DNA of 64,000 nucleotides from Patescibacteria group bacterium. Lineage in GTDB: Bacteria > Patescibacteriota > Patescibacteriia > PEXW01. Position numbers and translations under genes: made by a program. The DNA is taken from positions 9,978 through 73,977 of the forward strand of contig JBAZBR010000002.1 of the NCBI GenBank assembly GCA_041671325.1, written 5' to 3'. Of this stretch, positions 33,158 to 56,355 are shown in pieces. Below the pieces are notes generated by a model. That model was not told the origin of the DNA. It searched no databases and saw only the letters and a program-made list of their open reading frames with translations. Numbering within the stretch: position 1 is the stretch's first letter; every line of letters starts with the position of its first letter.

Positions 33158-33667
33158 TTAAGGATAGATTAGCATGCTGACTTTTTGCGCATTTACCGTG
33201 TCAGCGCTGGTGTCTTTGGTCAAGATGACGACATTCAAACCGACCTTGAGGTCGCTTTGTTTAATGGCGACGCCATCGCCAAAGCCGTTTTTGGGAATGG
33301 AGCGAAAATCCAGTTTCCGGATAAGCGTGTCTTTGGAAATATTCGCGGTCAAAGTCCGGGCGGTTTCACCAGAGGCGATCTGGATTTCTACGCTGTCTTT
33401 TGAAACTTTGGTGATTTTTCCGGAAATGGCAATGGTCTCCGGTTTTGTTGAAGTTCCGGTATTGCTGTTTAAGGCCGTTGAATTGGAATTTTTTGAAGAG
33501 CTCGAACCGGTTTCAGAATTATTTTTGCCATACCAAAAACCTGCAAAAGCGAAAATCGCCAACAAAAGGAAAACCGCGATAGTGGCGATAATAGCGCGTT
33601 GCTGGGGGGTTTGAAAATTTGATTTTGTTGCAACCATATTTTTATTGTTTACCTTGATTTTGGACAA
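33158..33667 (-). CDS. hypothetical bitopic membrane protein with Ser/Thr/Asn-rich linker
   Basis: 169-aa ORF with a TM helix at aa ~27-47. Confidence 0.45.
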   Translation of the reverse strand: MSKIKVNNKNMVATKSNFQTPQQRAIIATIAVFLLLAIFAFAGFWYGKNNSETGSSSSKNSNSTALNSNTGTSTKPETIAISGKITKVSKDSVEIQIASGETARTLTANISKDTLIRKLDFRSIPKNGFGDGVAIKQSDLKVGLNVVILTKDTSADTVNAQKVSMLIYP

Positions 33668-33745
33668 TACCTTTTGGATATTGTATAATAACTATTGCCC
33701 AGTATAGTTGAAAACGGGTAAATCCGCAAATAAACTAATAAAAAT

Positions 33746-35599
33746 ATGCAAAACCATCCTAAAAGCCAAAACGCCTTTCCTCGTTGGTTGGGCTATTGCC
33801 TGATTGCCATTCTGGTGGTCTTTTTTGGTATTGGTTTGAAAACTGTCTTTGCGGCTTTTAATGACCCAACTTGCGATCCGCTTACTAGCCCAGGCACCTG
33901 TAATACCAAACCGCCAATTTTTACACAAACCGATCCTGCAGGCGCTATTCAAACCATAGAAACTCCGTTGACCATTGGGGCAACCGGCGGAATTTCAGAA
34001 GATTTGAATTTATATGGAAGCATTATTCTTAATGAAAACGGGCAGAACCTAAGGACAAATGGATATGCCAGTGGCACCGTTGCACCGATTAATGTTTCAA
34101 ATTCCGGTTCATTTTATACCATCGTTTCAAATGCATCAGAAGCAACCGGAGCCGCTTATTCAGCTAGCGCTTCTGGTTATGCGACCGGGCTTCTTGCAAA
34201 TTCCATCAATGGGACTGCTTTATACGCAATTACAACTGGCGAGGGGTATGGCTTACGAATTGATTATTCCGGTACAACCACAGCCCTTAAGATTAATGCT
34301 TCTGGCAAGCAGGCCATGAATATTACAGGCGACTCAATTTTAACTGGCAATGCCAATATTACAGGCGCTTTAACAGTTGGGTCAATAACCGTTGGTGGTC
34401 AAAGTTTGACTGGGAACGAAAAAACTTTAACCGGGGTAATTCCATCTGCTACTCTTCCAGCCTATGGCGAATTGGTTATTCCCTTAAAAAGCGTGGCATT
34501 TAATAACAGTAATTATCGACTAACCAGTCTGCAAATTTTATATTCTAAAACAGCAACACCGCCAGCTAATACTTATTGGTATCAATTCCCGGTTGATTCA
34601 ACAAAACTCAAATATCAAGAATGCAATAATACTGGCTTAGGGACTTTTGTTGGTAATTTAACTTTGACCAATCCTTTATCTGATGCGACAAATGTTAGGG
34701 TTAAACTTACTTATTCTACAGATGCTGTGAATTGCGCTTCAGACAATTCCGCGCCGCTAGCCCCGATTATTTCTGTTACGCCTACGCCCTACGCAAATGG
34801 AGGCAAAAATTATGTAAAAGGATTGCCAACCCTAAATGTAACCGCTTCAGACCCAGAATCGGATATAACAGAAGTGACAATTTATGCTAACGCTGTTTTG
34901 GTAGCTACCTGTAGCATGAGTCCGTGTAGTTATACCTATGCTTCAGTACCAACAACTAAACAGACAATTACCGCAACGGCGAAATCCGGTGCTGCTGAAA
35001 TTTCACCAACTGCGACTTATATTTTTTCTCCTGATAATTATGGGCCGATCATAACCGCATTTAGCGCTCCAGCAGCAACTGTTAGCAGTCAAACCAATAT
35101 ATCAGTTCAAATTTCTGAAAATTTAAGCGGTGTTAAAATGGAAAGTGGTAAATATACCGGAGTCAGATTGTATCTTTGTCCAGGAGCTACTTGTACAGTG
35201 GGTGCTGGTACTGAACTGAAAGATTTTACTACAAACGATTTTGCTCAATCAACTGATGATACTTACTGGAAGATTAATTGGAACACAACTGCTTTTGTTA
35301 ACGGTACTTATACCATACTTGCAACCGCAGTTGATAATGTGGGGAATATAGCAACGGTTCCACCCTCAATTGTTAATTCCAAGACTATAGCAATAAGCAA
35401 TGTGCCTATTTGTGGTATTGCTGGCGCTTGTTATACAATTCCCAATTCAACAGAGCATAAAACGTCATGTTGCACTAACACTTGTTATGACCCAATAGTT
35501 AAAGGTTGTTGTGCTGGAGCAACTTATGATTTAAGTTCGGAATGTTGCTATAGTAATGTCGTTCATCCAATTGCTTATTGCAGTTGTCCAGGTTGTTAA
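33746..35599 (+). CDS. large secreted protein (617 aa) with a fibre-like Gly/Thr/Ala-rich region, Ig-like domains and a Cys-rich C-terminal module
   Basis: N-terminal TM/signal. Big-like beta-rich repeats. About 14 Cys in the last 60 aa. Confidence 0.5.
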   Translation: MQNHPKSQNAFPRWLGYCLIAILVVFFGIGLKTVFAAFNDPTCDPLTSPGTCNTKPPIFTQTDPAGAIQTIETPLTIGATGGISEDLNLYGSIILNENGQNLRTNGYASGTVAPINVSNSGSFYTIVSNASEATGAAYSASASGYATGLLANSINGTALYAITTGEGYGLRIDYSGTTTALKINASGKQAMNITGDSILTGNANITGALTVGSITVGGQSLTGNEKTLTGVIPSATLPAYGELVIPLKSVAFNNSNYRLTSLQILYSKTATPPANTYWYQFPVDSTKLKYQECNNTGLGTFVGNLTLTNPLSDATNVRVKLTYSTDAVNCASDNSAPLAPIISVTPTPYANGGKNYVKGLPTLNVTASDPESDITEVTIYANAVLVATCSMSPCSYTYASVPTTKQTITATAKSGAAEISPTATYIFSPDNYGPIITAFSAPAATVSSQTNISVQISENLSGVKMESGKYTGVRLYLCPGATCTVGAGTELKDFTTNDFAQSTDDTYWKINWNTTAFVNGTYTILATAVDNVGNIATVPPSIVNSKTIAISNVPICGIAGACYTIPNSTEHKTSCCTNTCYDPIVKGCCAGATYDLSSECCYSNVVHPIAYCSCPGC

Positions 35600-35739
35600 T
35601 TAACTAATAAATTGGATAATTAAAATACCGTTCTAGTAACAAAGGGGCGGTATTTTGTTATTTCCCAATAAAAGTTGACTTTTTGTTGATTTGATGGTAC
35701 AATATAAATGTTTGTAAACATAAAAAACTAACAATTCGG

Positions 35740-38700
35740 ATGCAAAAATCTCACCTATTAAATACAAAGGTAAGAGCTTGGCTAATTATGGCCGTGGCTT
35801 TTTTTACGTTATCGGTTTTCCTGCCCAAAGCGCTTTTAGCGGCCTTGACCAGCCCTTCAATCGTCGTGGGCGGAGACCAATATGCAAATGACAGTTCATT
35901 AGGCAAGATTTCCCAAAGAAATTGGCGGAGCGAAAACCAAAAAAGCCGAAAGATTGTTTATGTTAATCCTAATGATAAGACCCCGACTTTATTTGCTGGT
36001 TACGTTAACGAAGACAGCACGGCCTGCGCGAATACGGTCGATGGCGGGGTGACAATCAAAAGATGCAGACTGGAATTTAAAATGAGCATTGACAACGGCA
36101 TGACTTGGTCCCAAGCGATTTCCAGCTCCCAAACTTGGTTAGATATCGAAGTTATTAATTCAGCCATTGATCCGACCTTAACTAATTATTCGCCTGAGTT
36201 TTCAATAATATTAAGCCCGAACAACCAAGACATTTGGGTGGCGTATAAAACATATAGCACTGATATTAATAACAATATTAGTTTTGGCCAGGAATCTCAA
36301 ATCGCTAAATTGACCTGGGATGCCAGTACCAGCAAATGGAAAATCGGGACAATAAGAAAACCGTCAGTACCAATAGCGCCAACAGTGCCGAATATTAATA
36401 CAGAAACTAATGGCTGGTGTAATTATTATTCGACTTATAGAACGTCTTTGCCAACCGTATTTGTAGAGAATTTAAGTGATGGAACGGAAAGGGTTTGGGC
36501 AATACTACAATGTTTAAGTCTTCACGGCCCAGCCCCTGCATACCATTCGCATGAATATTACCCGATTTATAATGATGATTTTTCCAATTCTAATGATTGG
36601 ACAGTGGCAAAAAGTGGAGGCTCACCGCTACAAATAGAATACGATAATTATCCTAATCCCCCTGGCACTTATGGATATGCCCCGCCAAAAATGACCTTTA
36701 TTCCCCTCGGTAGCAATAAATTGCCAAGTATTATAAGTGCAAGAGAGCAATTTGTTGCTGGGGAAAATCCTTGCGTAAAGATATTTACTAAAAATAATGA
36801 TATAAGCGCGGATAGTTGGACAGCAACCTATAAATGCGCGGTTAGTGTTGTACCGGAAAAAGATACAAAACTTTTTGATTTTTCTATTGCGGCTTACCCA
36901 ACGTCTACAGACCAGTCCCGATTTGTAGTTGCCTATGAGGGTGGATATGATGTTGCCAGTGGAGGTGCAATAAGTTATGAAAATAAAACCAGGATAAGAA
37001 GCTGTTTATTTACGAATAGTGGTACCAGTGGTTGCAAAGCCGCCATTATTAGCGGATCGAATTTTTTTACTAACGCCTATTCGCCGTCCGTGGGTTTTTT
37101 TAACAGCAAAGCGTTTATTGCTCTACGGGATTCAGGCACTGGAAATTTGATAACCAGCGAAGAAAGTGCTGATTATTCTACTTGGCCACCGGCAGATTAT
37201 ACTTGGGTAGACGCATCTTCACATTCGTCTTCAGCCACGACCCAGACTCCCAGCGTTCCAGTTTATGTTTATGACGGGAAAATAACTTTGAATTCCGGAC
37301 TCTGGCCAATTATGTGGCTTCAAACAAATAATAAAAAAGTAGTTTTCTCTGAAAACATAGGAGGCACAGTAATCGGCCCGAATTTGCCGGCTTATCCAGT
37401 GCTGGGCTGGGGCTGGTCATCAAATTTCGGCTGGTTATCCTTAAATTGCGTAAATAGAATTTCATCAGACCTAAATGTTATTCCAAATTGTAATCCTGCT
37501 TATGGCGTCGGGGTGGGGATTGCCAGTTCAAATGTTCCAGCTGGCAATGCTTTTTCCGCGCCTGATGGCTACCCTTTGGGCGGTTATGCCTGGTCATCCA
37601 ATGCTGGCCTGGTTTCTTTTGAAAGAAAAGACAGCGTTAATAGCACAAATAATCCATATGGAAACCCGGCGAACCTGCCCTATAACAATAGCGCCAATGC
37701 CAATGACCCAATTATTAAATATGATACAACTGCCCAAAAAATCCATGGCTGGGGCAGGTTTTTGAACCTTTGTAATTTTGACAATACTTCAAAATGCAAA
37801 GATAAAGAGAAAGGCTGGTTGAAAATGCAGGGCTATTGGCTAAAACCCGGAGTAAAATGTGCAATTTTTCATAATACTAATAATACTGTTACTTTTTCTA
37901 ATGCGTTTCCTGGTGGTTGTACAGATTATGCTAAATTCGATATTGGCGGCGGTATTATCGTAGTTGACGGCGATTATTATCAATATACAAGCAGAGTTAG
38001 CAATAAATTAAACGGAATTTCACCGAATATTGGCCTAGCGCCTGATGATAGGGTCGACGACATGGTTTACGCGGCAAGCGGCACTGATCCAGATGATCCC
38101 CCTGGTTGCACTGGGAGTGCGTGCAGACTCAATGGCGGCCCATACGGCGTCCAAGCTTTTTGGAACGGTTCAAATTATGAATTCAGTGGCTGGGGCTGGA
38201 GCGATGATTATGGCTGGATTGCCTTCAGGCCATTGATCTTTGTGGGCTATGCCTGGATGGAATCTTTATTCGGCAATATTTATTCAGGAGGGGCAATCAG
38301 TTTGCCCAAGCCGGAAAACAAGTCTGGCACGCCAATTATGTGCGATTACAATAACGATGGAGTGGCAGAATCAGAATGCGTGGTCAGTACTTACCGGATT
38401 GAAGCTGGCGGAAACATTTCAACTTTTAACCCGCCTGGCACTTCTTACACAACCAAACTGCCAACTTCGGGATACGGTGGAAATTTCGGACCGGAAAACC
38501 GTCTATTGGGAAATCTGGAAAATTTTTTTGATTCAAACCTTTTAACCACAGGATCAGGAAACGCAGACCTATATTCTTTAAACACTAGCGAATCGACCGT
38601 GGTTTACCGGAATGCCCTGGGCAAACTGGATTTGACTGGTTTGATCAGTTATAGTGATTCAAATCTTATTAATTATTTTTATGAAACTGATCCTTCAACT

Positions 38701-39666
38701 GCTAAACAAATCAAGCTTGGTTTAAATCGTTTTGGCAATACAGTATGGGAAAATGTCATTTTGCCAGAAAGTAATATACCATCAGGCGGTTGGACCACAT
38801 CTTTGCTGGGAGGCTTAAGTACTTTTGGTAAATGGCAGGACAACCACCCAACCCTAGAATCATTTCAAAATGAAGTTGTGCATATCACTACTGACCTGAC
38901 AATTGACGGCGGATCTGGGGTATGGGCATCAAAAGCAGGCGATTGGACATCGGCTGCGGGCGGAACCCTGACCATATCAGGGGCAACTGGAAACTTTTCA
39001 ACCCCTGCTGACCCGGCAACTGGTAGTAGTCCACCATTACAAAAAGCTCTTTGTTCAACCTGTGCTTTGGTAATTGATCCAAATACAGCTAATGAAGAAT
39101 ATGTTTCTTATACTTCATTTTCAGGTTCAACTTTTAATGGGGTGAGAACTATTAATGGCATCAAAACTCATTCTGGCGCACCAATCGTCAGGTCAGCCTG
39201 GAGATTACCCTATACTTCTGGTGAAGCTAATGCGCAAACAGTTACATTTGTAGTGGACGGAAACTTGAATATTAATTATAATATAATTGGATCAAACCCA
39301 TCGAATCCACAAAAAATTCGTGATCTACCGACCGTTGCTTTTATCGTCAAAGGCAACGTGAATATTGACCCAGCAGTCAATAAAGTGACGGGCGCATTCG
39401 TTGCTTTAGGCCCAGCCAGTCAATTTAACACTGGTAATGACTATGGCTATTGTCCGCAGGGTACTGCGCTTGGCGTTATCTGCAATCCCCTGGAAGTTGT
39501 GGGCTTGGTTATGGCAAAGAGCTTTAGCTTGGAAAGGTATGGAGCTAAAGACTTGTCAAAACCCGGGGAAAAATTTGTTTACGATTCCAGTTTGTTCTTA
39601 AACCCACCGCCTGGCCTTAATGATTTAAGCAAAGCCTTGGCTAACCCAACCCGAACTCAACCTTAA
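35740..39666 (+). CDS. giant secreted protein (1308 aa) with repeated GWGWS..GW(L/I) motifs. Ends 5 nt before pilM, so probably co-transcribed.
   Basis: Signal peptide. Internal repeats LGWGWSSNFGWLSLNC, GGYAWSSNAGLVSF and SGWGWSDDYGWIAFRP. No recognisable enzymatic motifs. Confidence 0.5.
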   Translation: MQKSHLLNTKVRAWLIMAVAFFTLSVFLPKALLAALTSPSIVVGGDQYANDSSLGKISQRNWRSENQKSRKIVYVNPNDKTPTLFAGYVNEDSTACANTVDGGVTIKRCRLEFKMSIDNGMTWSQAISSSQTWLDIEVINSAIDPTLTNYSPEFSIILSPNNQDIWVAYKTYSTDINNNISFGQESQIAKLTWDASTSKWKIGTIRKPSVPIAPTVPNINTETNGWCNYYSTYRTSLPTVFVENLSDGTERVWAILQCLSLHGPAPAYHSHEYYPIYNDDFSNSNDWTVAKSGGSPLQIEYDNYPNPPGTYGYAPPKMTFIPLGSNKLPSIISAREQFVAGENPCVKIFTKNNDISADSWTATYKCAVSVVPEKDTKLFDFSIAAYPTSTDQSRFVVAYEGGYDVASGGAISYENKTRIRSCLFTNSGTSGCKAAIISGSNFFTNAYSPSVGFFNSKAFIALRDSGTGNLITSEESADYSTWPPADYTWVDASSHSSSATTQTPSVPVYVYDGKITLNSGLWPIMWLQTNNKKVVFSENIGGTVIGPNLPAYPVLGWGWSSNFGWLSLNCVNRISSDLNVIPNCNPAYGVGVGIASSNVPAGNAFSAPDGYPLGGYAWSSNAGLVSFERKDSVNSTNNPYGNPANLPYNNSANANDPIIKYDTTAQKIHGWGRFLNLCNFDNTSKCKDKEKGWLKMQGYWLKPGVKCAIFHNTNNTVTFSNAFPGGCTDYAKFDIGGGIIVVDGDYYQYTSRVSNKLNGISPNIGLAPDDRVDDMVYAASGTDPDDPPGCTGSACRLNGGPYGVQAFWNGSNYEFSGWGWSDDYGWIAFRPLIFVGYAWMESLFGNIYSGGAISLPKPENKSGTPIMCDYNNDGVAESECVVSTYRIEAGGNISTFNPPGTSYTTKLPTSGYGGNFGPENRLLGNLENFFDSNLLTTGSGNADLYSLNTSESTVVYRNALGKLDLTGLISYSDSNLINYFYETDPSTAKQIKLGLNRFGNTVWENVILPESNIPSGGWTTSLLGGLSTFGKWQDNHPTLESFQNEVVHITTDLTIDGGSGVWASKAGDWTSAAGGTLTISGATGNFSTPADPATGSSPPLQKALCSTCALVIDPNTANEEYVSYTSFSGSTFNGVRTINGIKTHSGAPIVRSAWRLPYTSGEANAQTVTFVVDGNLNINYNIIGSNPSNPQKIRDLPTVAFIVKGNVNIDPAVNKVTGAFVALGPASQFNTGNDYGYCPQGTALGVICNPLEVVGLVMAKSFSLERYGAKDLSKPGEKFVYDSSLFLNPPPGLNDLSKALANPTRTQP

Positions 39667-39670
39667 AAAT

Positions 39671-40801
39671 ATGCCGATTTTTTCTTCAAAACAAAGCTAT
39701 TTAGGCATTGATATTGGCGGTTCAGCCATTAAGCTGGTTGAAATTAAACCGATTGCCAACCGGCCGACTTTGGTTACCTATGGTTTTGCGGAAAAACGCA
39801 GTGACTTGCTTAAAAGCACCTTAGGCGAAGAAATGAAAGCCATAATCGCGGCCATAAAACAGGTGGTTGAAGCCAGTCGTGCCAGTTCCAGGCTAGTAGT
39901 CAGCGCTTTGCCCAGTTTTACGGTTTTCAGCTCAATAATTTCCCTGCCGCAGATGTCAAAAAAAGAATTAATGTCAGCCGTAAAATGGGAAGCGAAAAAA
40001 TTTGTGCCCATGCCGGTTGAAGAAATGATTTTGGACTGGGAAGTCTTGAAAGATGATACCTTGGCGGCCAAGGTGGCAGGCGTGAACGCGCAAGGTACGG
40101 TAACCAAGGACGCAAACCTGCCTTCGCCGGAAGTGGCCGGCAAAAACAGCGCCAAAGACCTGAAGGTTTTACTGACTGCCGCGCCAAAAAATTTGGTCCA
40201 AAAATACATGGAGATTTTCAAAGCCGCTGATTTGCAACTGGTGGCTTTGGAAACTGAAGCTTTTTCTTTGGAAAGGTCGTTAATCGGCCATGACAAGGCG
40301 CCCATCATGATTGTGGATATTGGCGCGGTGGCTTCCAATATCGTAGTCTTCAGCGAAGGCATTCCCATGCTGACCCGCTCCATCGATGTCGGCGGCGATA
40401 CTATTACAAAAACCATAGCCAGCACCCTAAGGGTCAGCCCAGATCGGGCCGAACAGTTTAAGCGGGATTTTTTCATTGCCACCCAAGGCATGACTGACAG
40501 CAATATCCCCAAGGCCATTGAGTTTGTGGTTAATTCCATAACCAACGAGATTAAATACGTCCTGAATCTTTACCAGAACCAGGGCACTGGCCGGAATATT
40601 GAAAAAATTATTCTTTCCGGCGGCTCGGCTTTCCTGACCAATTTGCCCGAATACTTCACGAAAATTTTAAATATCCAAACTTATATTGGCGATCCCTGGG
40701 CCAGGGTTTCTTACCCGGTGGAATTAAAGCCGGTTTGGGATGAAATTGGGCCCAGATTTGCGGTTGCCGTAGGCTTGGCCTTAAGGCAATTAGGAAGTTA
40801 A
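39671..40801 (+). CDS. pilM: type IV pilus assembly ATPase-like protein PilM (actin/FtsA fold)
   Basis: LGIDIGGSAIKLVE N-terminus. Length and motifs in the PilM pattern. Confidence 0.85.
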   Translation: MPIFSSKQSYLGIDIGGSAIKLVEIKPIANRPTLVTYGFAEKRSDLLKSTLGEEMKAIIAAIKQVVEASRASSRLVVSALPSFTVFSSIISLPQMSKKELMSAVKWEAKKFVPMPVEEMILDWEVLKDDTLAAKVAGVNAQGTVTKDANLPSPEVAGKNSAKDLKVLLTAAPKNLVQKYMEIFKAADLQLVALETEAFSLERSLIGHDKAPIMIVDIGAVASNIVVFSEGIPMLTRSIDVGGDTITKTIASTLRVSPDRAEQFKRDFFIATQGMTDSNIPKAIEFVVNSITNEIKYVLNLYQNQGTGRNIEKIILSGGSAFLTNLPEYFTKILNIQTYIGDPWARVSYPVELKPVWDEIGPRFAVAVGLALRQLGS

Positions 40802-40804
40802 CTT

Positions 40805-42148
40805 ATGGAGTCAGAAATAAATTTGCTTCCAGAAAAGGATAAACAATTAAAACGAGAAGCCAAGCCGAAAGCTCCGGAAATTGAAATGACTCAGCCAAAG
40901 GATAGGGTTTTTTCTGAACATGTTGTCCCGGCGAGCGGCTTAGTTGAGTTTTTTAAGAATTTGTTTGGCAAGAAAGACCAATTAATCATCAAAAAAGGGC
41001 ATGAAAAGCTAGAACCGCCCGAGCCAAAGAAGTCGGTGTTAACGCCAGCCGCGCCAATTGGGCCAGTGACCAGAATAGAAGCTATGGCTAGCCGGGTGAC
41101 TATGCCCCCGCCTCCGCCAGTGCCAGTTCAGTTGAAACCGCAAAGCCAAAACCAGGCAAAATCCACGGCAACTTCTGCTAAGCCAGGTTTTTTCCATAAA
41201 TTTTTGAATAAAATTGAGGGCATACCAGAAAAACCAGCGCCAAAACCAAGCAAAAATATTGAAGATAAGAATATCCTTCCGTCCAGGCCAACTCAACCTC
41301 CTCCTCAACAGCCAGAATATCGGCCAGAAACCCCCTTACCCGCCAGAAAACCAGTTTGGACCCCGCCTCCGCCTCCTGCTGTTATGGTTAATGCACCCGA
41401 ATCCCAAGCCAGTACGCTAAACAAATTGCCGCCAGTGCCGCTCCCGCCCAGAAAACCAGTTACGGATTCCGGCGAAGCGGTTAGGGAAGTAACCAAGGGC
41501 AAACAGCGGCCAGAACCTAGCCCAGTTATGGGCTTGGGTCTGAATGTCAACTTAGTGCCTGAAGAGTACCAAACTAAAACCGGACCGAAGTTAAAAGTTT
41601 ATTTTGCATTAACAATATTAATCCCGATATTAATAATTGCGGGAATGTCTTTTGGCTTGTGGATATATACTAAGAACGTTCAAAATAAAATTTCAAAAAT
41701 AAATGACGAATTGCAATTGGTAAAAACCCAAATTGAATCCATTACCACCGGGACTTTGACGTATGCGCAGGCCTTGCAGCAAAAAACCAGCAGCCTGAAC
41801 ACGGTTTTAAACCAGCATGTTTATTGGGACAAGTTTTTTATGTATTTGGAAAAATACACCCTACCGTCGGTAAGCTACCAGAATATGTCGGTGGATATTA
41901 CCGGAGGTGTGAGCTTATCCGCCACCACAAAAACTTTTGATGATGTTGGCCGGGAATTATTGATCCTAAAACAGGCTGCGGATTTTGTGAATGAAGTTAC
42001 CATCACTTCAGCCGTTAAAGCTAGTATTGCAAATCCTTTAGCCGCCAATCCGCCTGACCAGAAAGTAGAACAAAAAACCGAGGAAGTGGTTAATTTTTCC
42101 ATTGCTTTGAAAGTTAAGCCGGAAATTTTCTTTAAAAGATCTAAGTAG
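40805..42148 (+). CDS. PilN-like pilus assembly protein with a ~260-aa Pro-rich cytoplasmic N-terminal extension
   Basis: Single TM (aa ~265-290) followed by a PilN-like periplasmic domain. Position after pilM. Confidence 0.5.
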   Translation: MESEINLLPEKDKQLKREAKPKAPEIEMTQPKDRVFSEHVVPASGLVEFFKNLFGKKDQLIIKKGHEKLEPPEPKKSVLTPAAPIGPVTRIEAMASRVTMPPPPPVPVQLKPQSQNQAKSTATSAKPGFFHKFLNKIEGIPEKPAPKPSKNIEDKNILPSRPTQPPPQQPEYRPETPLPARKPVWTPPPPPAVMVNAPESQASTLNKLPPVPLPPRKPVTDSGEAVREVTKGKQRPEPSPVMGLGLNVNLVPEEYQTKTGPKLKVYFALTILIPILIIAGMSFGLWIYTKNVQNKISKINDELQLVKTQIESITTGTLTYAQALQQKTSSLNTVLNQHVYWDKFFMYLEKYTLPSVSYQNMSVDITGGVSLSATTKTFDDVGRELLILKQAADFVNEVTITSAVKASIANPLAANPPDQKVEQKTEEVVNFSIALKVKPEIFFKRSK

Positions 42149-42156
42149 AAAATTCA

Positions 42157-42759
42157 ATGCGTATTAGTCTTAAAAAAATAACCAGCTTCATTGCCGAACA
42201 CTTGTCAATAATCGGCAAGATAGTTGCTTTTATTATCCTGATAATCGGCATATTATTTTTAGTCGTACCCCAGTATCAGAAGGCCAGGGGATTAGCCGGT
42301 GTAGATTACACCTATAAAAAAACCCAACTCGAAAACGAAACACAATATAGAGACAGCTTGTTTGAGTTGAGAAATAGCTTAAACAAAATCCCCCAAGAGG
42401 ACATTGACCGAATTTCCTTGATAATTCCTAAAGGCAAGGATATCCCGGGCATATTCAAGCAGATGGAGGGATTTGCTAAATCAGTGGGCATGACCCTGCA
42501 ATCAGTTTCGATTTCTGATGGTGGGCTAGCAACCGGTTCAACCGCAAGCGCAGCGGCAGGAAATGCCAGCCAAGTTAAAACTCTTTCAATTTCCGTGGTT
42601 TTGGGCGGTTCAATGAATTATAGCCGAATGAAAGATTTCTTGAACACTTTAGCCAAACAGGCTCCGATATTGGATCTAACCAGCATTTCATATTCTCCTG
42701 CCACCAGCGCGGTACCCACTACGTATAGCTTTTCCTTTCGTTCGTATTATTTTCAATAA
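42157..42759 (+). CDS. PilO-like pilus assembly protein
   Basis: N-terminal TM, coiled-coil, and C-terminal domain. Operon position pilM-N-O. Confidence 0.5.
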   Translation: MRISLKKITSFIAEHLSIIGKIVAFIILIIGILFLVVPQYQKARGLAGVDYTYKKTQLENETQYRDSLFELRNSLNKIPQEDIDRISLIIPKGKDIPGIFKQMEGFAKSVGMTLQSVSISDGGLATGSTASAAAGNASQVKTLSISVVLGGSMNYSRMKDFLNTLAKQAPILDLTSISYSPATSAVPTTYSFSFRSYYFQ

Positions 42760-42764
42760 ATATT

Positions 42765-43910
42765 ATGCTTGTCCAAAAGCAAGCCACAAAAAATTTACGT
42801 AATTACTTATTAATCGGCGGGATTATCCTAGTCTTATTGCTGGGGTATTTAGTTTATCAAAAAATGTCCAATTCTAACCAGGATTTGTCAGGAGATTCAG
42901 GGGGTGCAAAAAGACAAGCCTTGCCAAAAGATTTTGGCCAGAAGCTTTTTAAAGATCCAAGATTTTATGACCTAAAGCCAATTGCTGGGACTGAATTGGT
43001 CCAACAGGCAATGGTAACAACCCTTTCAACATTATTGCCCGCGCCAGAGAATTTTCAGGCATTTGACATGCAAAGCGGCGGTCGAATTATTTTTTCCTGG
43101 GTAAGGCCAGCTCTGGCCGAAGAAGCCACCAGTTTTAGGATTGTTAAAGGCCAAGAGAATTCTGCAAAAAATATTATTTCTTTAAAACCCGAAGAGACAA
43201 GCTTTGAATATTCATCGGCCACCAACAACGCAAAAGAAAGTTATTTCGGATACTATGTCAAGGAAGAAATACTCAGCCAAAGCCCCCAAATCTTGAGTCA
43301 GGACGGCCAAATTGGCGGAAGCATTAGGATTGCCATGTATCAGAATAGTGCAACATTAAGCTGGGCCAATCCTGATAATTCTGGGCTTAAGGCCATAGAA
43401 ATATTTCGTTCAGACAAAATCGGGTCTTTGGGAAGATTATTGGTAAATTTGGAAAATAATATTACGGAATATGAGGACAGTGATTCCGGCCCAGGACTGT
43501 ACTATTATACGGTTATTTGGGTTGGGAATGTCACTTTGGGCGAGAAGAGTCCAGCGGTAATTCAAGCAACGGACTCAAGCGCGCCAAGCGCTCCCCAAGC
43601 ACTTTCGGTAAAGTATATTCCTGAATCAAATAATATCGAATTAAGCTGGCAACCTTCTGCCTCAAGCGATGTCATAAGCTATGAAATTTATAAGTCAGAA
43701 ATACAAAATACTTTAGGTATAAATATCAGCACTATTGAAGTCCCAACAAATCAAGATGTTTCAAAAAATTCCCTTAATTATCTGGATGAATCCGTCCAGC
43801 CGAATAAGAAATTTTATTACAGCGTGGTGGCAGTAGACAGTTCTGGAAACAAATCTACCCAACAAACCCTTGGCGTTCCGGGAAATTCTAATCCTTTTGG
43901 CGAACAATGA
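42765..43910 (+). CDS. membrane-anchored protein with fibronectin type III-like domains (possible PilP-type or secretin-replacing accessory protein of a monoderm T4P)
   Basis: N-terminal TM. FN3-like PSAPQALSVKYIPESNNIELSWQP...YYSVVAVDSSGNKS. Confidence 0.45.
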   Translation: MLVQKQATKNLRNYLLIGGIILVLLLGYLVYQKMSNSNQDLSGDSGGAKRQALPKDFGQKLFKDPRFYDLKPIAGTELVQQAMVTTLSTLLPAPENFQAFDMQSGGRIIFSWVRPALAEEATSFRIVKGQENSAKNIISLKPEETSFEYSSATNNAKESYFGYYVKEEILSQSPQILSQDGQIGGSIRIAMYQNSATLSWANPDNSGLKAIEIFRSDKIGSLGRLLVNLENNITEYEDSDSGPGLYYYTVIWVGNVTLGEKSPAVIQATDSSAPSAPQALSVKYIPESNNIELSWQPSASSDVISYEIYKSEIQNTLGINISTIEVPTNQDVSKNSLNYLDESVQPNKKFYYSVVAVDSSGNKSTQQTLGVPGNSNPFGEQ

Positions 43911-45670
43911 GCTTAAGCCCAAATCAAATAAATATTCGGGATATTGGCTCGGTGCTTTTGGCAAAAGGCCTGATTAACAAAGAGCAATATGCCCAAGCGG
44001 AAAAACAAGCCCGCCAAAAACGCGTGCCGGTTAATGTTATTTTGGAAGAGAAAGGCTTGGTTAAAGACGAAGACCTGGCAAGGGTCCGGGCTGAAGTTTT
44101 CCAGATTCCCTACGTGGACCTTCATGGCCGGGTAATTTCTACAGAGCTTTTGAATATTGTCCCGAGGGAAATTGCCAGAAATTACCAAATGGTGGCGTTT
44201 GCCAAAGAAGGCCGCAAAATAAGCGTGGCTTTGCTTGACCCCGCTAATTTTCGGGCTTTAGAAGCCATAGAATTCATTGCTCGGAATAGTAATTTCATAA
44301 TTGATTATTACGTCTCGTCTTTTGCCTCAATTGGCAGCATTTTAAAGCAATATGCCAGCTTATCCGCCGAAGTTGAAGAAGCTTTAGCGGCGTCCGGGCC
44401 CAGGGAAAAGCCAAAAATCAGCGCCCTTGATGAAATTGCCTTGGCCGACAAGGGCATTGAAGAAGTCATCAAGACTGCCCCGGTTTCCAAAATGGTGGCA
44501 GTTATCTTGAGGCACGCCATTGAAGGCGGCGCTTCGGATATCCATATTGAACCCAGCGCTGAAGGTTCACGGGTAAGGTACAGGGTAGACGGCATTTTGC
44601 ATACCTCAATCAAATTACCGCCATACGTGCATGCCTCAATTGTTGCCAGGATTAAGGTTATTTCCAATTTGAAGCTGGATGAAACCAGGCTGCCGCAGGA
44701 CGGCCGTTTCCATACCGAAGTTGACGGTAAATCCATTGACTTGCGTGTTTCAACGCTGCCCCTGATGAATAACGAAAAGGTGGTAATGAGAATTTTGGAT
44801 TCCTCTTCCCAGCATTTGAACCTGGATGACCTGGGCTTTATCGCCCGGGAAAAGGAAGTTTTGATAAAATGCCTGGAATCAACCCAGGGCATGGTTTTAA
44901 GCACTGGCCCAACCGGTTCAGGCAAATCCACTACCTTATATACCTTGCTAGGCATGATCAATACCGAAGATATTAATATCGTCACTTTGGAAGACCCGGT
45001 TGAATACCATATGGAAGGCGTGAATCAATCGCAAATCAATCCTGAGGTTGGCCTGACTTTTGCCAATGGCTTAAGGTCCATCTTGCGGCAAGACCCGGAT
45101 GTGGTCATGGTTGGCGAAATCCGCGATACCGAAACCGCGGAATTGGCTGTCAACGCCGCCTTGACTGGACACTTAGTTTTTTCCACTTTGCACACCAATG
45201 ACGCGTTTGGCGCCATCCCGCGCTTGATTGACATGAAAGTTGAACCATTCTTGATTTCTTCCTCTTTATCGACTATCGTTGCCCAGCGTTTGGTCAGAAG
45301 AATCTGTGAACACTGCAAGGTAATAGAGGAGGTTCCGGAAGCAACCAGGCAGGAAGTTTTGGAAACCCTTAAAAAGGCCGCAAAATCTGCTTTTCCAAAA
45401 GACTTTTCATTGGATAAACCTTTAGTTTTCCATAGGGGCAAGGGTTGCATTCGCTGCGGTAATAGCGGGTACAAAGGCCGCATGGTCGTGGCTGAAGTTT
45501 TGGAAGTAACCGAAGAGCTTCAAATAATAATTAACAGTGGCTCCAAACTGCAGGATATAAAAGCCGAAGCAAAAAGACAGGGTGTCTTGACCATGAAAGA
45601 AGACGGTTTTGTAAAAGCTTGCGTAGGCTATACCTCTATTGAAGAGGTTTTGCGGGCCACGCAAGAATAA
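43907..45670 (+). CDS. pilB: type IV pilus assembly ATPase PilB (GspE family)
   Basis: GspE N-domain. Walker A GPTGSGKSTT. Asp box. Cys4 motif CEHCK...CIRCGNSGYKG. Confidence 0.9.
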   Translation: MSLSPNQINIRDIGSVLLAKGLINKEQYAQAEKQARQKRVPVNVILEEKGLVKDEDLARVRAEVFQIPYVDLHGRVISTELLNIVPREIARNYQMVAFAKEGRKISVALLDPANFRALEAIEFIARNSNFIIDYYVSSFASIGSILKQYASLSAEVEEALAASGPREKPKISALDEIALADKGIEEVIKTAPVSKMVAVILRHAIEGGASDIHIEPSAEGSRVRYRVDGILHTSIKLPPYVHASIVARIKVISNLKLDETRLPQDGRFHTEVDGKSIDLRVSTLPLMNNEKVVMRILDSSSQHLNLDDLGFIAREKEVLIKCLESTQGMVLSTGPTGSGKSTTLYTLLGMINTEDINIVTLEDPVEYHMEGVNQSQINPEVGLTFANGLRSILRQDPDVVMVGEIRDTETAELAVNAALTGHLVFSTLHTNDAFGAIPRLIDMKVEPFLISSSLSTIVAQRLVRRICEHCKVIEEVPEATRQEVLETLKKAAKSAFPKDFSLDKPLVFHRGKGCIRCGNSGYKGRMVVAEVLEVTEELQIIINSGSKLQDIKAEAKRQGVLTMKEDGFVKACVGYTSIEEVLRATQE

Positions 45671-45706
45671 CCATTGATCTCATTAAATCTCCATAATCAG
45701 TAATTT

Positions 45707-46153
45707 ATGCCAAACCAAATGACGAAAAAAAGCGATAGCCGCAAGAATCACGCTGAAAATGCCAAGAAACCCGCCCACGAATTGGGCAAGAAAACCATAC
45801 TTCTGGTGGAGGATGACACGTTTTTAGCTGGAATGTATGTGACTAAACTGGAACTGGAAGGCTTCCGGGTTTTGCTGGCCAGTGATGGCGAACAGGCCGT
45901 GGTTTTAGCCAAAAAAGAAATTCCAAATATCATGCTTTTGGACATTATTTTGCCCAAGAAAAGCGGTTTTGAAGTATTGCAAGAGATAAAAGCCAGTGCT
46001 TCAACCAAGAATATTCCGGTTATACTCCTAACCAACCTCGGCCAGAAAGAAGATGTCCAAAAAGGCTTAAAATTAGGGGCAGTTGATTATTTAATCAAGG
46101 CGCATTTCATGCCTTCCGAAGTCGTGGCCAAAGTTAAGAGATTAGTGAAGTGA
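45707..46153 (+). CDS. single-domain response regulator (CheY-like receiver, PilH/PilG-like position)
   Basis: LLVEDD...D57-like LLDIILP...K at the expected positions. Confidence 0.8.
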   Translation: MPNQMTKKSDSRKNHAENAKKPAHELGKKTILLVEDDTFLAGMYVTKLELEGFRVLLASDGEQAVVLAKKEIPNIMLLDIILPKKSGFEVLQEIKASASTKNIPVILLTNLGQKEDVQKGLKLGAVDYLIKAHFMPSEVVAKVKRLVK

Positions 46154-46285
46154 TGAATTTAAAAACGTCTTTGCGGGGAAGTGCCCATGTCACTGACGAC
46201 GCAATCCCATTAAATAAAAGACCAAGTAAGTTAAACAGTGGGATTGCCACGTCGCTCCGCTCCTCGCAATGACATATAATAAACG

Positions 46286-47359
46286 ATGCTTACCTCTGAA
46301 CAACAATCTATTACTAGAATTTTAACTCAAGCCATTCAATACCGGGCTTCAGATGTTCATTTGGTTCCAGGCAATCCGCCAGTTTTAAGGGTGGACGGCA
46401 AATTAATGCAGTTGGATCAGGAAATGATAATCAGCGCGGACCTGCTAAAAAGTTATATTGAATCAATCTTGAATCCTGAACAATTAAAGATCCTGGAGCA
46501 AGACAGGGACTTGCGTACGACCATAGCTTTAGAAGGCAAACTCCGTTTCAGGCTTATTGCTATTTACCAAAAAGGCGGTTTGTCTTTGGATATGCGCTAT
46601 ATCCCAGAAGTTATTCCAACTATTGCCGAACTGGGCTTGCCTAAGGAAGTAGAGAATTTTGCCCAAGCTCCGCATGGCTTGATTTTAGTTTCCGGACCCT
46701 TTGGCTCCGGCCGAACCACAACCTTGGCGGCCATGCTTAATTTAATAAACCAAGAAAGGGTTTGCCACATCATCACCATTGAGAAGCCAATTGAGTATTT
46801 ATTGGCCGGACAAAAAAGCATTATTGAACAAAGAGAGGTTGGCGTTGACGTCAAGAATATTGAACATGCTTTAAGCCTGATTGAATCTGAAGATGTGGAC
46901 GTGGTAGCGGTTTCCGAATTAGAAAACGATTCAGATATTCAGGCCTGCGTGAAGATTTTGCACAGCGGCCGGCTGATTCTGGCCACCCTAACTGCTGATT
47001 CCTCAACCCAGGCTTTAGAAAGGCTGGTAAACGCTTTTCCAGCGGAGAGTCAGTCGACGGTCAGTAAAAATATTTCCGACGCCATTCAAGGCATTATCAA
47101 TTTACGGCTAGTCCCCAGGATTGGCGGCGGCCGGGTTTTAGTTTCGGAAATTTTTTCGCCGACCAGCGCTTCCCGGGCGGTAATTAGGGACAGGCAATTC
47201 ATGCAATTGGCCAACACCATTCAAACCTCAAGGGTGGAAGGCATGATTTCCTTGGACCGTTCCTTGGCTGAGATGGTCAGGGTTGGCGATGTGAAAATTG
47301 AAGACGCGGAAGCCGTTTCAATTGATCCCCAAAACTTAAGACAAATGATAAACCGATAA
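46286..47359 (+). CDS. pilT: twitching motility ATPase PilT
   Basis: Walker A GPFGSGRTTT. PilT-length hexameric ATPase motifs. Confidence 0.85.
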   Translation: MLTSEQQSITRILTQAIQYRASDVHLVPGNPPVLRVDGKLMQLDQEMIISADLLKSYIESILNPEQLKILEQDRDLRTTIALEGKLRFRLIAIYQKGGLSLDMRYIPEVIPTIAELGLPKEVENFAQAPHGLILVSGPFGSGRTTTLAAMLNLINQERVCHIITIEKPIEYLLAGQKSIIEQREVGVDVKNIEHALSLIESEDVDVVAVSELENDSDIQACVKILHSGRLILATLTADSSTQALERLVNAFPAESQSTVSKNISDAIQGIINLRLVPRIGGGRVLVSEIFSPTSASRAVIRDRQFMQLANTIQTSRVEGMISLDRSLAEMVRVGDVKIEDAEAVSIDPQNLRQMINR

Positions 47360-47362
47360 TTT

Positions 47363-48571
47363 ATGGCAATTTTTGACTACCGGGCAAAAAATTTTCAGGG
47401 CCAGACAGTCGAAGGGGCGGTAGTCGCGCCTTCTGACGCGGTTGCTTACGATACGCTTAGGGAAAAAAGCTTGACCATAATTTCCCTGAAAGAACGCCCC
47501 AAAGGCGACAAAATTTTTGGTACGAACTTGTTTAAAAAAGTCAGCGTCAAAGAGCAGGTAATTTTCGCCAGGCAATTATCAGTTATGATCTCGGCGAATG
47601 TGCCTATAGTCAGGGCCTTAAGGATTTTAGTCCGGCAAACCAAGAATGTTAATTTCAAGATGATCCTTTCGGATATCCTGGATGAGGTTGATGGCGGCGC
47701 CAGGCTATCCATGGCCCTGGCTCGGTATCCCCAAGTTTTTAACACTTTTTTCGTGTCCATGATTAGGTCTGGCGAAACCACTGGCAAACTGGATGAGGTT
47801 TTAGTTTATCTGGCCGACCAAAAGGAAAAAGATTATGGGATTACCAGCCGGGTCAGGGGCGCGTTCATATATCCGGCTGTGGTTTTGTTTGCCGTGCTGG
47901 CCGTGGGCGTGGTCATGGTGGTTTTTGTCCTCCCAAAATTGCTGACAATTTTCACCGAAGGAGGCGCTGAACTCCCCTTAACGACAAAAATGTTGATAGG
48001 CATCAGTAATTTTGTGACCCATCAGTGGTATGTAGTAATTTTGATCATTTTGGCAGCAACTGTGGCTTTTATTTGGTGGAAGCGGACGCCCGGCGGCAGA
48101 AATGCTTTGGATGAAATAAAGCTGCGGATGCCGATTGCGGGCAGGATTTTCACCATGATTTACTTGACCCGCCTTGCCAGGTCATTATCCACGCTTTTGG
48201 GCTCGGGCGTGCCAATCTCCCAGGCTTTGTCAATTACGGCAGAGGTGGTTGGCAACCATGCTTACCAAAGGATAATCGAAAAAACCATCCGCGAAGTGGA
48301 AGACGGAAATTCCATAACCACGGTTTTCATCAAAAGCAAGCAAGTGCCTTTAATGCTTTCCCAAATGATGGCCGTGGGCGAGCAATCCGGCCAGCTGGAT
48401 CAAGTTTTGATGAAAGTCGCCCAATTTTATGAAAATGAGCTGGATGGCCTGGTCAGGAACCTCGTTTCATTGATTGAACCTTTAATCCTGCTCTTAATGG
48501 GCGTCGGCGTCGGCTTTATGGTTTCTTCCATCTTATTGCCGATTTACAACGTCGGCAATGCGATTAATTAG
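47363..48571 (+). CDS. pilC: type IV pilus platform protein PilC (GspF family)
   Basis: Two GspF repeats, 3 TM, typical length. Confidence 0.85.
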   Translation: MAIFDYRAKNFQGQTVEGAVVAPSDAVAYDTLREKSLTIISLKERPKGDKIFGTNLFKKVSVKEQVIFARQLSVMISANVPIVRALRILVRQTKNVNFKMILSDILDEVDGGARLSMALARYPQVFNTFFVSMIRSGETTGKLDEVLVYLADQKEKDYGITSRVRGAFIYPAVVLFAVLAVGVVMVVFVLPKLLTIFTEGGAELPLTTKMLIGISNFVTHQWYVVILIILAATVAFIWWKRTPGGRNALDEIKLRMPIAGRIFTMIYLTRLARSLSTLLGSGVPISQALSITAEVVGNHAYQRIIEKTIREVEDGNSITTVFIKSKQVPLMLSQMMAVGEQSGQLDQVLMKVAQFYENELDGLVRNLVSLIEPLILLLMGVGVGFMVSSILLPIYNVGNAIN

Positions 48572-49611: not shown

Positions 49612-50121
49612 ATGACAAAAAGAAAAGGTTTTACTTTAATTGAATTGTTGGTGGTTATTGCCATCATCGGTATTCTGTCAGCCGTGGGTTTGATCGCGCT
49701 TAATGGCGCTCGAGAAAAAGCCCGTGACTCACAGAGAAAGAGCGATTTGGGCCAATTGAGAACCGGTTTGGCTTTGTATTATGATACTTATAATAATTTT
49801 CCAACAGCTGCAACAGCGATAGCGGCCGATTATGTTAACGGTGCAGGACTCGCGCTTGATGCGGGATTGGTTGCTACAGACCAGAAATTTATTTCAAAAT
49901 TACCGAACATGCCAAGCACTTCAGATACTGGCACAGCACGCCAATATATGTACCAAACCTGCGGTGTGACTGCTGCAACCGACTATATACTTTACGCTGG
50001 CTTGGAAAGACCTAAGGATACTGGAGCTTATTGGACATTAAGCTATAGCCAAGGCGTTGCTTGTGAAGCAACTTCTTTTAGTTGTGCAGTAGGCGCTGCC
50101 TCCACTGTAACTTGTTTGTAA
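49612..50121 (+). CDS. pilA: type IV pilin (major pilin candidate), prepilin leader MTKRKG|[16 protein letters not shown]
   Basis: Class III signal. Strong RBS AAGGGAGGTG. C-terminal Cys pair. Confidence 0.8.
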
Positions 50122-50224
50122 TCTGTTAATATAGCTAATATAACAATCAAAAAGGGCCATTTAGGCTCTTTTTGATTTAATAGCCAGATTTCCCAAATAG
50201 AATAATTTATTATAATCTTAAGTA

Positions 50225-50713
50225 ATGAAAAAGAGTACGAATCAGAATTCGGGCTTCACCCTAATAGAATTATTAATAGTGATTGCTATTATCGGTATTT
50301 TAACGGCAATTGGTTTAATTGTTTTAAGCAATAGCCGTGAACGAGCCAGAGACATTAAACGCAAAACGGATTTAAATAGCGTCAAATTGGGTTTGGAGTT
50401 GTATTTTGACAGCTTTAATGCTTACCCCTCTCAAGACACTTTTTTGGGTTTTAGTAATGCAACCGGGGCTGGAAATTTGGTTTACGATTCATTAGTTGGC
50501 AACGCAAAATTTATTAGTAGCTTGCCACAAACACCTTTAGCCGGCGAATTGTATTATTATCGGTCATGCGTGCCTGCAGGCCAAACTGGCTATACAGATT
50601 ACACACTCTATTCGCGCTTGGAGCAACCCACAGTTCCAGGGAATTTTTGGATAATTAGCAAGAGTAAAGCCACTAGCCAGGAAGTAAATTCAGTTAATTG
50701 TCCCCAAACTTAG
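50225..50713 (+). CDS. type IV pilin paralogue (MKKSTNQNSG|[16 protein letters not shown])
   Basis: Class III signal peptide. Conserved alpha1 region similar to the 49612 gene. Confidence 0.8.
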   Translation: MKKSTNQNSGFTLIELLIVIAIIGILTAIGLIVLSNSRERARDIKRKTDLNSVKLGLELYFDSFNAYPSQDTFLGFSNATGAGNLVYDSLVGNAKFISSLPQTPLAGELYYYRSCVPAGQTGYTDYTLYSRLEQPTVPGNFWIISKSKATSQEVNSVNCPQT

Positions 50714-50718
50714 AGAAT

Positions 50719-52903: not shown

Positions 52904-53039
52904 AATTTTTGAAAAGCAAGATTGCCGCGCTTCCTTGTAAGAGCGAGGTCGCTCGCAATGACCGATCTTTAATCAACCGTCTTTGCGAGTCCCGCAGCCG
53001 CGGCAGGGACGGGAAAGGAGGGAGAAAGTAAGGCAATGG

Positions 53040-53505: not shown

Positions 53506-53516
53506 ATGAAAGGTAA
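53121..53516 (+). CDS. DUF559 domain protein, copy 2
   Basis: Start at ATG 53121 with AGGTGAGGTGG SD-like sequence. Conserved DUF559 motifs. Confidence 0.75.
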   Translation: MKLKPLTIKAKRLRQRQTPQEVKLWSRLKNRQCSGYKFRRQVHLGKYIVDFYCPEKKFIVEVDGGQHSHERFSKRDSFRSNYLKNQGCKVIRFWNNDIDSNLEGVYQVILDFLSSPSPLSPLPREERRNER

Positions 53517-54303: not shown

Positions 54304-54340
54304 ATCCAGCACCACTTTTCAACAAAACATTAAAAAATTC

Positions 54341-55243: not shown

Positions 55244-55298
55244 TTTCTAAAAGTTAAAAAATAATTAATAAACAAAGAAATAGACAATTAAAGAGTTT

Positions 55299-56343: not shown

Positions 56344-56355
56344 GTTTTAATTAAA

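Follow-up and report, generated by a model that had tools for sequence, protein, structure and literature searches.

Here, we describe a gene for a large, probably secreted protein, geneB (35740..39666, + strand; 1308 amino acids, aa), which lies directly before pilM at the head of a type IVa pilus gene string in the metagenome-assembled genome of a bacterium of the Patescibacteria, or candidate phyla radiation (CPR). The gene was identified in a 64,000-nucleotide (nt) stretch of contig JBAZBR010000002.1 (assembly GCA_041671325.1, positions 9,978 to 73,977), hereafter the window, to which all coordinates refer unless another locus is named. GeneB belongs to a protein family that appears to be new, uncurated and apparently specific to part of the CPR; the kind of protein to which we assign it, a non-pilin accessory or adhesin of type IV pili, is already known. 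Its product is very probably a part of the type IVa pilus system of this bacterium and, as we propose more tentatively, a PilY1-like accessory protein or adhesin that docks by a conserved end and binds by a variable one. The sequence-only reading of this region, based on translated open reading frames (ORFs), had paired geneB with the gene upstream of it, geneA (33746..35599, + strand; 617 aa), as two secreted proteins transcribed together with pilMNO-pilB and acting, on account of that coupling, as pilus-associated adhesins, tip proteins or attachment proteins. Both ORFs were found as described; the link of geneB to the pilus proved stronger than had been claimed, whereas for geneA the argument from transcription fails.

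The geneB family and its linkage to pilM

Word-indexed homologue searches were nearly empty, with two matches for geneB, one of which was a relative, and three for geneA. When 1.84 billion cluster representatives were searched exhaustively with HMMER, with a single sequence (geneB aa 109-1308) as the query, at least 289 family clusters were recovered. About 17 of these hold full-length relatives of 1270-1415 aa; the remaining ~270 have only the last ~140-160 aa in common with geneB, in each case at the C-terminal end of a protein of 125-1714 aa, and most of these C-terminal-only relatives start with GWAWSENYGWISLNC-type motifs right after the signal peptide. From the N- to the C-terminus, the family consensus consists of a signal peptide, two to five hairpins with a Gly-Trp (GW) motif, the motifs PWLxTxxGxIY, NATYxI and YxNxLGKxDxxGL, and a C-terminal module that reads GxGTIxVDGDLxIN...SVAWIVKGDVxI...GxFIVLG...LxVxGLxxARxFxFxR...PAExIIYDGRLxANPPPGLxDFxKxLP. 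GeneB shows all the defining features, that is, a signal peptide, the GW motif, YxNxLGKxD, the NPPPGL terminal module and pilM directly 3'. The shared core of the family has no relative in Pfam, in NCBIfam or among PDB sequences, and we found no published description of the family.

Two sets of loci were retrieved by motifs inside the family protein only, without reference to pil genes. The first, drawn from 185,579 GTDB species genomes by two peptide patterns in the middle of geneB, comprised 24 loci; in all 23 that have downstream sequence the family gene stands directly before pilM-N-O-(fn3)-pilB-RR-pilT-pilC (where RR is a response regulator gene), and pilin genes follow. These loci span Ca. 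Parcubacteria, Kerfeldbacteria, Buchananbacteria and Portnoybacteria. Those closest to the window come from metagenome-assembled genomes (MAGs) of Ca. Kerfeldbacteria and Parcubacteria; in loci of the Buchananbacteria and Portnoybacteria types the identity of PilM falls to just 45-51%, and the family protein, ~600 aa long, lacks the propeller described below. The second set, from an independent scan of Joint Genome Institute (JGI) metagenomes by the C-terminal pattern [SA]ExIIYDGR, comprised 80 loci, 73 of them with at least 600 nt of downstream sequence; pilM starts within 700 nt in 71 of the 73 and at 953 nt in one more. In the combined sets the family gene lies right before pilM, on the same strand and usually within tens of nt, in 94 of 96 loci, i.e. 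pilM accompanies the family in ~98% of loci that were retrieved through the family protein. The order pilM, PilN-like gene, PilO-like gene and, where present, fn3 gene is conserved in all related loci. Each fetched locus has one copy of the family gene, coding for a protein of 132 to 1471 aa (median ~608); the conserved module ends no more than 25 aa from the C-terminus in 96/96 proteins, and the GW motif is present in 74 of the 82 complete family proteins.

These loci bear on whether geneB and geneA could both be generic surface proteins of the CPR, of the S-layer or host-contact kind, placed next to the pil genes by the collinearity of small genomes. Across classes, a gene for LemA is likewise kept a few kb upstream, so that synteny in this region exceeds functional units, and geneA has a promoter and a terminator of its own (see below). 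However, what lies between LemA and the family gene differs from locus to locus in the number, size and family of the genes, and the linkage of geneB to pilM is far tighter than the loose collinearity of LemA; the independently retrieved loci keep the family gene directly before pilM, and no terminator was found between the two genes. We therefore consider this explanation very unlikely. That geneB is not a generic surface protein, as the sequence-only reading had held for both proteins, is well supported.

Transcription units around geneB

The stop codon of geneB (TAA, 39664-39666) and the ATG of pilM (39671) are 4 nt apart, which bears out the earlier statement that geneB ends just before pilM, and pilM itself (39671-40801, +) is clearly recognised (TIGR01175, 8.5e-58). 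A sequence scan found no terminator-like site in the junction. Within the block 39671..43910 (+), pilM is followed by a PilN-like gene (40805-42148), a PilO-like gene (42157-42759) and a gene for an fn3 membrane protein (42765-43910). The next block (43907..48571, +) holds pilB (43907-45670; T2SSE, 1e-130), the response regulator gene (45707-46153), pilT (46286-47359) and pilC (47363-48571). From geneB to pilB the intergenic gaps range from -4 to 8 nt; internal promoters may nevertheless exist in this string. Further downstream are two major-pilin-like genes (49612..50713, +; N_methyl motif) and a block (53536..60019, +) with the gene for the prepilin peptidase PilD (53536-54303) and five minor-pilin-like genes (54257-60019), the last of which is PilX_N-like. 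The type IVa pilus cluster is thus complete and extends from ~35.7 to 60.0 kb, with every gene on the + strand.

The 140-nt gap between geneA and geneB holds two signals. The first is an intrinsic-terminator-like hairpin (35622..35663, +), which in the RNA fold has a 13-bp stem and a 9-nt loop and is followed by GUUAUUU; a simple terminator scanner had overlooked it because its loop is longer than 8 nt. The second, recognised by sequence scan and comparison, is a promoter-like site with an extended -10 TG (TTGACT-17-TACAAT; 35675..35703, +). GeneA is itself preceded by a promoter-like site (TGGACA-17-TATAAT, 11/12; 33661..33689, +), and the same site is kept in the related loci L001 and L002. 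An equivalent hairpin with a T-run is found in the same place after the geneA orthologue of L001, where the gap, flanked by hairpin and promoter, is enlarged by palindromic repeats. The geneB promoter, TTGACT-17-TGgTA[CA]AAT, recurs in five loci (the window and L001, L006, L007 and L011), although the proteins in the compared loci are only 31-45% identical. Moreover, in L007 two unrelated ORFs of 286 and 348 aa (L007 7237..9462) are inserted between the geneA-like and the geneB-like genes, from which we conclude that the two large genes are separable. As far as such sequence-based predictions go, geneA is best read as a monocistronic transcription unit and geneB as heading the pil operon, under its own conserved sigma-70-type promoter. 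The proposed co-transcription with pilMNO-pilB would hold for geneB, whose gaps to the string are tight, but not for geneA, which is set apart by a terminator and a second promoter.

Domain organization of the geneB protein

GeneB begins with a Sec-type signal peptide (aa 1-35; 35740..35844, +), with a basic n-region, a hydrophobic h-region and the site LLA/ALTSP; orthologues show a canonical AxA/ALTSP, and the mature N-terminus ALTSPxxVVxG is conserved. Signal sequences had been claimed for both proteins, and n-regions, h-regions and AXA-like sites are indeed seen in both by inspection. Neither protein has an N_methyl match or the Gly-1/Glu+5 pattern, whereas the true pilins of the cluster do match. 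No Pfam family was matched by geneB at E<=0.1 and no NCBIfam model either, hence no enzyme family, and searches of PDB sequences with both proteins and three family profiles gave nothing below E ~0.4. Secretin and N0/AMIN domains were found neither in geneB, with Pfam and NCBIfam, nor in 78 family members.

The N-terminal part (aa ~37-540; 35848..37359, +) is predicted to form a beta-propeller-like domain. It was modelled with AlphaFold (aa 109-1308, 16-sequence alignment) with a predicted local distance difference test (pLDDT) score of mostly 50-85, and in a Foldseek search of the PDB it matched only propellers of five to seven blades. The best match was a glycoside hydrolase of family GH43 (3a71, E 1.3e-6), and the others included sialidases, CyRPA, LGI1 and WD40 proteins such as Seh1, all at a target-normalised template modelling (TM) score of 0.26-0.5 and an identity of 9-13%. 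The fold match fits the presence of a conserved Asp-box, SIDNGMTW, at aa 116 (36085-36108, +). The structure prediction and fold search suggested for both proteins thus yielded a propeller-like N-terminal domain for geneB; they were not informative for its C-terminal module. A Foldseek search of viral structures returned low-TM tail-fibre noise, and a phage origin was discarded after a tblastn search of 50,697 phage records with geneA and the core of geneB gave no match.

In view of the propeller, geneB might code for a sialidase- or GH43-like glycoside hydrolase that is secreted, attacks host envelopes and is perhaps exported via the pilus-like machine. Its best structural matches are propeller glycosidases (3a71, 2w38, 8t24 and 4yz2), and Asp-boxes are of sialidase type. 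However, the single Asp-box of geneB is a structural and not a catalytic motif, and there is no glycosidase, BNR or sialidase match in Pfam or NCBIfam. The propeller fold is matched at low TM in a model with a pLDDT of ~55, and non-enzymatic Seh1, CyRPA and LGI1 score equally; no FRIP-type motif was seen on inspection. In addition, the propeller is the least conserved part of the protein and is missing from most family members. A hydrolase is in our view highly improbable, and the earlier statement that enzymatic motifs are lacking stands as far as Pfam and NCBIfam enzyme families are concerned, with the structural Asp-box as a qualification.

Three copies of a Trp/Gly-rich motif follow the propeller, in agreement with the earlier count of at least three: GWGWSSNFGWLSL at aa 556-568 (37405..37443, +; a predicted beta-hairpin), GYAWSSNAGLVSF at aa 615-627 (37582..37620, +; motif scan) and GWGWSDDYGWIAF at aa 817-829, the last followed by a degenerate copy, GYAWMESLFGNIYS, at aa 836-849 (together 38188..38286, +; family consensus PWLxTxxGxIY). 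Their pattern is GWxWSxxxGW[IL]S[LF], with a further degenerate copy at aa 670 besides that at aa 836. The strict motif did not occur even once in 10,000 shuffles of the geneB protein, and none of 5,000 shuffles reached the four copies of the core G[WY]xW that geneB has; the motif is absent from every other ORF of the window, in all frames. A 45%-identical orthologue keeps all three copies unchanged. The middle region has a YRNALGKLD-type motif, and the protein ends with the C-terminal module that is the signature of the family (aa ~1151-1308; 39190..39663, +), made of beta-strand rungs and the tail LFLNPPPGLNDLSKALANPTRTQP.

Identity to relatives rises along the protein, with 22-40% in the propeller, 39-48% in the GW region, 26-51% in the middle and 45-70% in the C-terminal module. 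The core that is conserved across CPR classes corresponds to aa 540-1308; the propeller (~500 aa) is an addition of the clade to which the window belongs. Other members occasionally have extra modules of their own (Laminin_G_3, F5/8 type C, a sialidase N-terminal lectin domain, DUF4215 and choice-of-anchor A), which are of carbohydrate-binding or adhesive types. A match to TafC was set aside as irrelevant, since it stems from a laminin-G-like domain that one member has. Identity between the window and L001 is 91% for PilM, 89% for PilB, 89% for PilC, 59% for PilO, 52% for PilN, 45% for geneB and 35% for geneA. GeneB thus diverges faster than the cytoplasmic machine, which fits a surface-exposed protein.

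Two calcium-loop-like stretches were noticed by eye. The first, MCDYNNDGVAESEC at geneB aa 868-880 (38341-38379), is an Asp/Asn-rich loop flanked by Cys that resembles a DxDxDG calcium-binding loop; the second, NCxNDFDGDGxxE, follows the first GW motif in many relatives. The function of PilY1 is calcium-dependent.

GeneA, probably a separate surface protein

GeneA has a signal peptide (aa 1-36, with a VFA/AF site, by inspection), a G/T/A-rich, fibre-like region at about aa 60-225, which in relatives contains quasi-repeats, one or more putative all-beta, Ig-like regions and a Cys-rich C-terminal module (aa 556-617; 35411..35596, +). The last had been described as a knot-like module with 14 Cys in 60 aa; the actual number is 12 Cys in 62 aa, about seven of which are conserved. 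The Ig-like domains that had been proposed are represented by one marginal match to Big_7 (aa 357-410, E 2.9e-5, 25.1 bits for a Pfam cutoff of 24.1), and the identical NCBI protein is named 'MAG: Ig-like domain-containing protein [Patescibacteria group bacterium]'. An AlphaFold model based on a 3-sequence alignment was unusable (pLDDT 42.5) and did not confirm an Ig-like fold. No enzyme family of Pfam or NCBIfam was matched by geneA.

Each locus with relatives of geneA has one or two copies of them, invariably placed between geneB and a small conserved gene. Their signal peptide and mature N-terminus (AF-x-x-P-x-C-D-P...P-I/L-F) are strikingly well conserved; after these come a G/T/A-rich quasi-repeat region, an all-beta region and a Cys-rich tail. 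A CPR-wide geneA family was considered and rejected, as a hidden Markov model (HMM) of the N-terminal 130 aa finds only the clade of the window. The loci of the Buchananbacteria type (L015 2648..8593, with equivalents in L017-L029) have one to three secreted fibre-like proteins of 370-1260 aa upstream of the family gene, with a mature N-terminus that is typically AW-x-EP-x-x-PP-x-GN-x-x-x-PLN, repeats of the 'GNVGIGT' type and, in many cases, Cys-rich ends; these proteins have no detectable homology to geneA and are positional analogues only. A 'surface-fibre slot' upstream of the pil operon thus seems to be conserved while its occupants change. This may point to a related function, for instance host contact, but does not speak for an association with the pilus.

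In view of its own promoter and terminator, the insertion in L007, the clade-restricted family and the presence in the neighbourhood of LemA, which is unlikely to be related to the pilus, the association of geneA with the pilus is positional only. GeneA is best explained, from its sequence, as a separately transcribed, clade-restricted and fast-diverging secreted surface protein with fibre, Ig-like and Cys-knot parts.

GeneB and known pilus-associated proteins

PilY1/PilC is a non-pilin protein that serves the type IVa pili of Pseudomonas, Neisseria and Myxococcus as tip adhesin and priming factor (PMC7541494). GeneB is alike in being a large (about 1000-1500 aa), non-pilin protein with a Sec signal, one conserved and one variable, adhesive end and a propeller, and in being encoded inside a type IVa cluster that also contains a set of minor pilins, these being 15 kb downstream. 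However, it does not match the Pfam PilY1/PilC domain and has no sequence homology to these proteins. Its polarity is inverted, with a variable propeller at the N-terminus and the conserved module of beta-strand rungs at the C-terminus; the organism, moreover, is a monoderm-like CPR bacterium, the CPR envelope having no outer membrane.

A second system, in the CPR themselves, is PilX2 of the saccharibacterium Nanosynbacter lyticus TM7x, a large pilin-like protein encoded in a pilin locus, with a C-terminal seven-bladed propeller (PMC11623550 / PMC12206443). PilX2 has a non-canonical signal peptide, has been proposed to be a type IV pilus adhesin and is needed for efficient host binding (PMC11623550). 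GeneB shares with it the association with a CPR type IV pilus, a beta-propeller and a signal peptide that is not of the PilD-processed type. PilX2 is described with a pilin-like, lollipop fold, whereas geneB has no N-terminal methylation motif and an N-terminal propeller; the GW motifs and the NPPPGL module belong to geneB, and no Saccharibacteria are among the family matches.

The C-terminal module of geneB has a rung pattern, G-x-G-T-I-x-V-x-G-D-L-x-I, in common with pAdhesive_15 (PF20597), DUF7305 (PF23981) and choice-of-anchor A (TIGR04215). Most family members are not matched by these models, however (choice-of-anchor A is matched by one of 78), and only in this family is there an NPPPGL tail and a strictly C-terminal position of the module. 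On its sequence pattern, the module may be said to resemble an ice-binding-like adhesive beta-helix, at fold level only.

A conserved and a variable end are also what a structural part might show, since in secretins, too, a conserved C-terminal domain is joined to variable N-terminal domains. GeneB might then be an envelope part, a wall or S-layer anchor or a conduit, in the role that proteins of the PilQ, TsaP or FimV type have in diderms, with its GW hairpins binding the wall polymers of the cell itself and its C-terminal module contacting PilN, PilO or the fn3 protein. Several observations suit such a part: the gene always adjoins pilM-N-O and not the minor pilin genes, it is single-copy, and aa 540-1308 are kept across CPR classes. 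In style only, the Gly-Trp aromatic hairpins are like the cell-wall-binding repeats of Gram-positive bacteria. Like PilQ (and TsaP and FimV), geneB is predicted to be extracytoplasmic, is contiguous with pilM-N-O and is made of a conserved C-terminal and a variable N-terminal part. In contrast to PilQ, it has no secretin, AMIN or LysM domain, and its gene is upstream of pilMNO, whereas that of PilQ is downstream (pilMNOPQ in diderms). Nor was there a Pfam match to SLH, CW_binding or GW/SH3. A size that ranges from ~480 to more than 1400 aa, lectin-type modules and a fast-evolving propeller would be unexpected in a structural part, and geneB diverges faster than PilN and PilO. On balance we consider an envelope part, the main rival of the PilY1-like reading, unlikely, but by far less so than a hydrolase or a generic surface protein.

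A proposed PilY1-like role for geneB

We favour, though at somewhat less than even odds, a PilY1-like division of labour in geneB, because it is a secreted-type non-pilin, contiguous with pilMNO behind a conserved promoter and a near-obligatory partner of pilM, because it has a conserved and a variable end, because it diverges fast and because family members have lectin-type modules. In addition, no PilY1 homologue accompanies the five minor pilins of the cluster, which leaves the role of PilY1 open. PilX2 offers a published precedent in the CPR (PMC11623550). According to this proposal, the geneB product would be secreted via Sec, from a gene transcribed first in the geneB-pilM-pilN-pilO-fn3-pilB string. 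Through its conserved C-terminal module it would dock to an invariant partner, which might be the minor-pilin tip complex or a periplasmic assembly of PilNO and the fn3 protein. The lineage-variable N-terminal part, a propeller here and lectin-type modules elsewhere, would bind its target, possibly glycans of a host cell, and the aromatic GW hairpins could perhaps share in glycan binding. The protein would then act like PilY1/PilC, as a pilus-associated adhesin and possibly a priming factor, without being homologous to it. The adhesin or tip role that had been proposed from transcriptional coupling is thus inferred here from the architecture, that is, from variable propeller or lectin-type modules at one end and a conserved module at the other.

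Several points weigh against this proposal. PilY1 genes sit with minor-pilin genes, whereas geneB heads the pilMNO operon and the five minor pilin genes, co-directional with it, are 15 kb downstream; a position beside pilMNO, which codes for the alignment subcomplex, and the single copy suit a structural part of the machine at least as well. The match of the C-terminal module to an adhesive family is below threshold, in geneB itself (pAdhesive_15, E 0.016, 15.5 bits for a threshold of 23.8) as well as among 27 members (6/27 for pAdhesive_15 and 5/27 for DUF7305, best E ~7e-5). The model of geneB is mediocre, with a mean pLDDT of 55.6 and a predicted TM score (pTM) of 0.41, and the GW region is below 50. 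The signal peptide was judged by eye, like that of geneA, and not by a predictor. Finally, the family was detected in part of the CPR, and Saccharibacteria were not among the matches.

The proposal can be taken further. The family might supply the type IV pili of a large part of the CPR with a core subunit that has gone unrecognised, the functional counterpart there of PilY1, with the C-terminal module sitting in the minor-pilin tip complex and with swappable N-terminal modules setting the host; we regard this as possible, though rather doubtful.

Other features of the window

Several other features of the pil cluster and its surroundings were recorded. The PilN-like protein (40805..42148, +; 447 aa) has a Pro-rich N-terminal extension of ~230 aa ahead of its membrane helix and is not matched by Pfam; conservation of the extension is poor, the alignment with more distant loci being confined to aa 237-445. 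Directly 3' of the two major-pilin-like genes (49612.. and 50225..), at 50698..52446 (+), lies the gene for a Wzy_C O-antigen-ligase-like protein with tetratricopeptide (TPR) repeats, which is a candidate for a TfpO-type enzyme that O-glycosylates pilin. One of the minor-pilin-like proteins (56356..57456, +) has a match to dockerin type I (E 4.6e-8), a calcium-binding and cohesin-binding type of module that is unusual for a pilin.

Three ORFs for DUF559 endonuclease-like proteins lie in or near the pil cluster (48654-49372, 52983..53516 and 61073..61441). That between pilC and the pilin gene is flanked by the palindromic repeats TCCTCTCC..GGAGAGGA and CCCTCTCCC..GGGAGAGGG; similar palindromes fill the enlarged geneA-geneB gap of L001 (L001 3040-3210), and a further site of this group is at 32506-32532 in the window. 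The DUF559 ORFs and the palindromes look like a small family of mobile or repeat elements. Near the start of the window, a third very large ORF (301..4620, +; 1439 aa) without a Pfam match codes for a protein with a multi-pass membrane N-terminal third and a long Glu/Lys/Gln-rich coiled-coil tail. The product is a membrane protein and not a secreted adhesin; it may be a VirB6/TrbL-like component of a type IV secretion system.

Implications for the CPR

The CPR, or Patescibacteria, make up a large share of bacterial diversity, and those that have been cultivated live attached to host cells. Type IV pili are the best-supported attachment device of these bacteria (PMC10633639, PMC11623550). The geneB family is a concrete candidate for the host-contact part of the CPR pilus outside the Saccharibacteria or, alternatively, for an envelope part of a monoderm-type machine, and with neither a database model nor a structure so far it offers a defined target for structural, transcript and genetic study. 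The variable N-terminal end of geneB could mark host specificity. If the family is indeed a core pilus subunit, its N-terminal modules (propeller, ConA-like, discoidin and Cys-rich repeats) would decide the host cell of these episymbionts, and the host range of uncultivated CPR of the Parcubacteria type would be readable from one gene.

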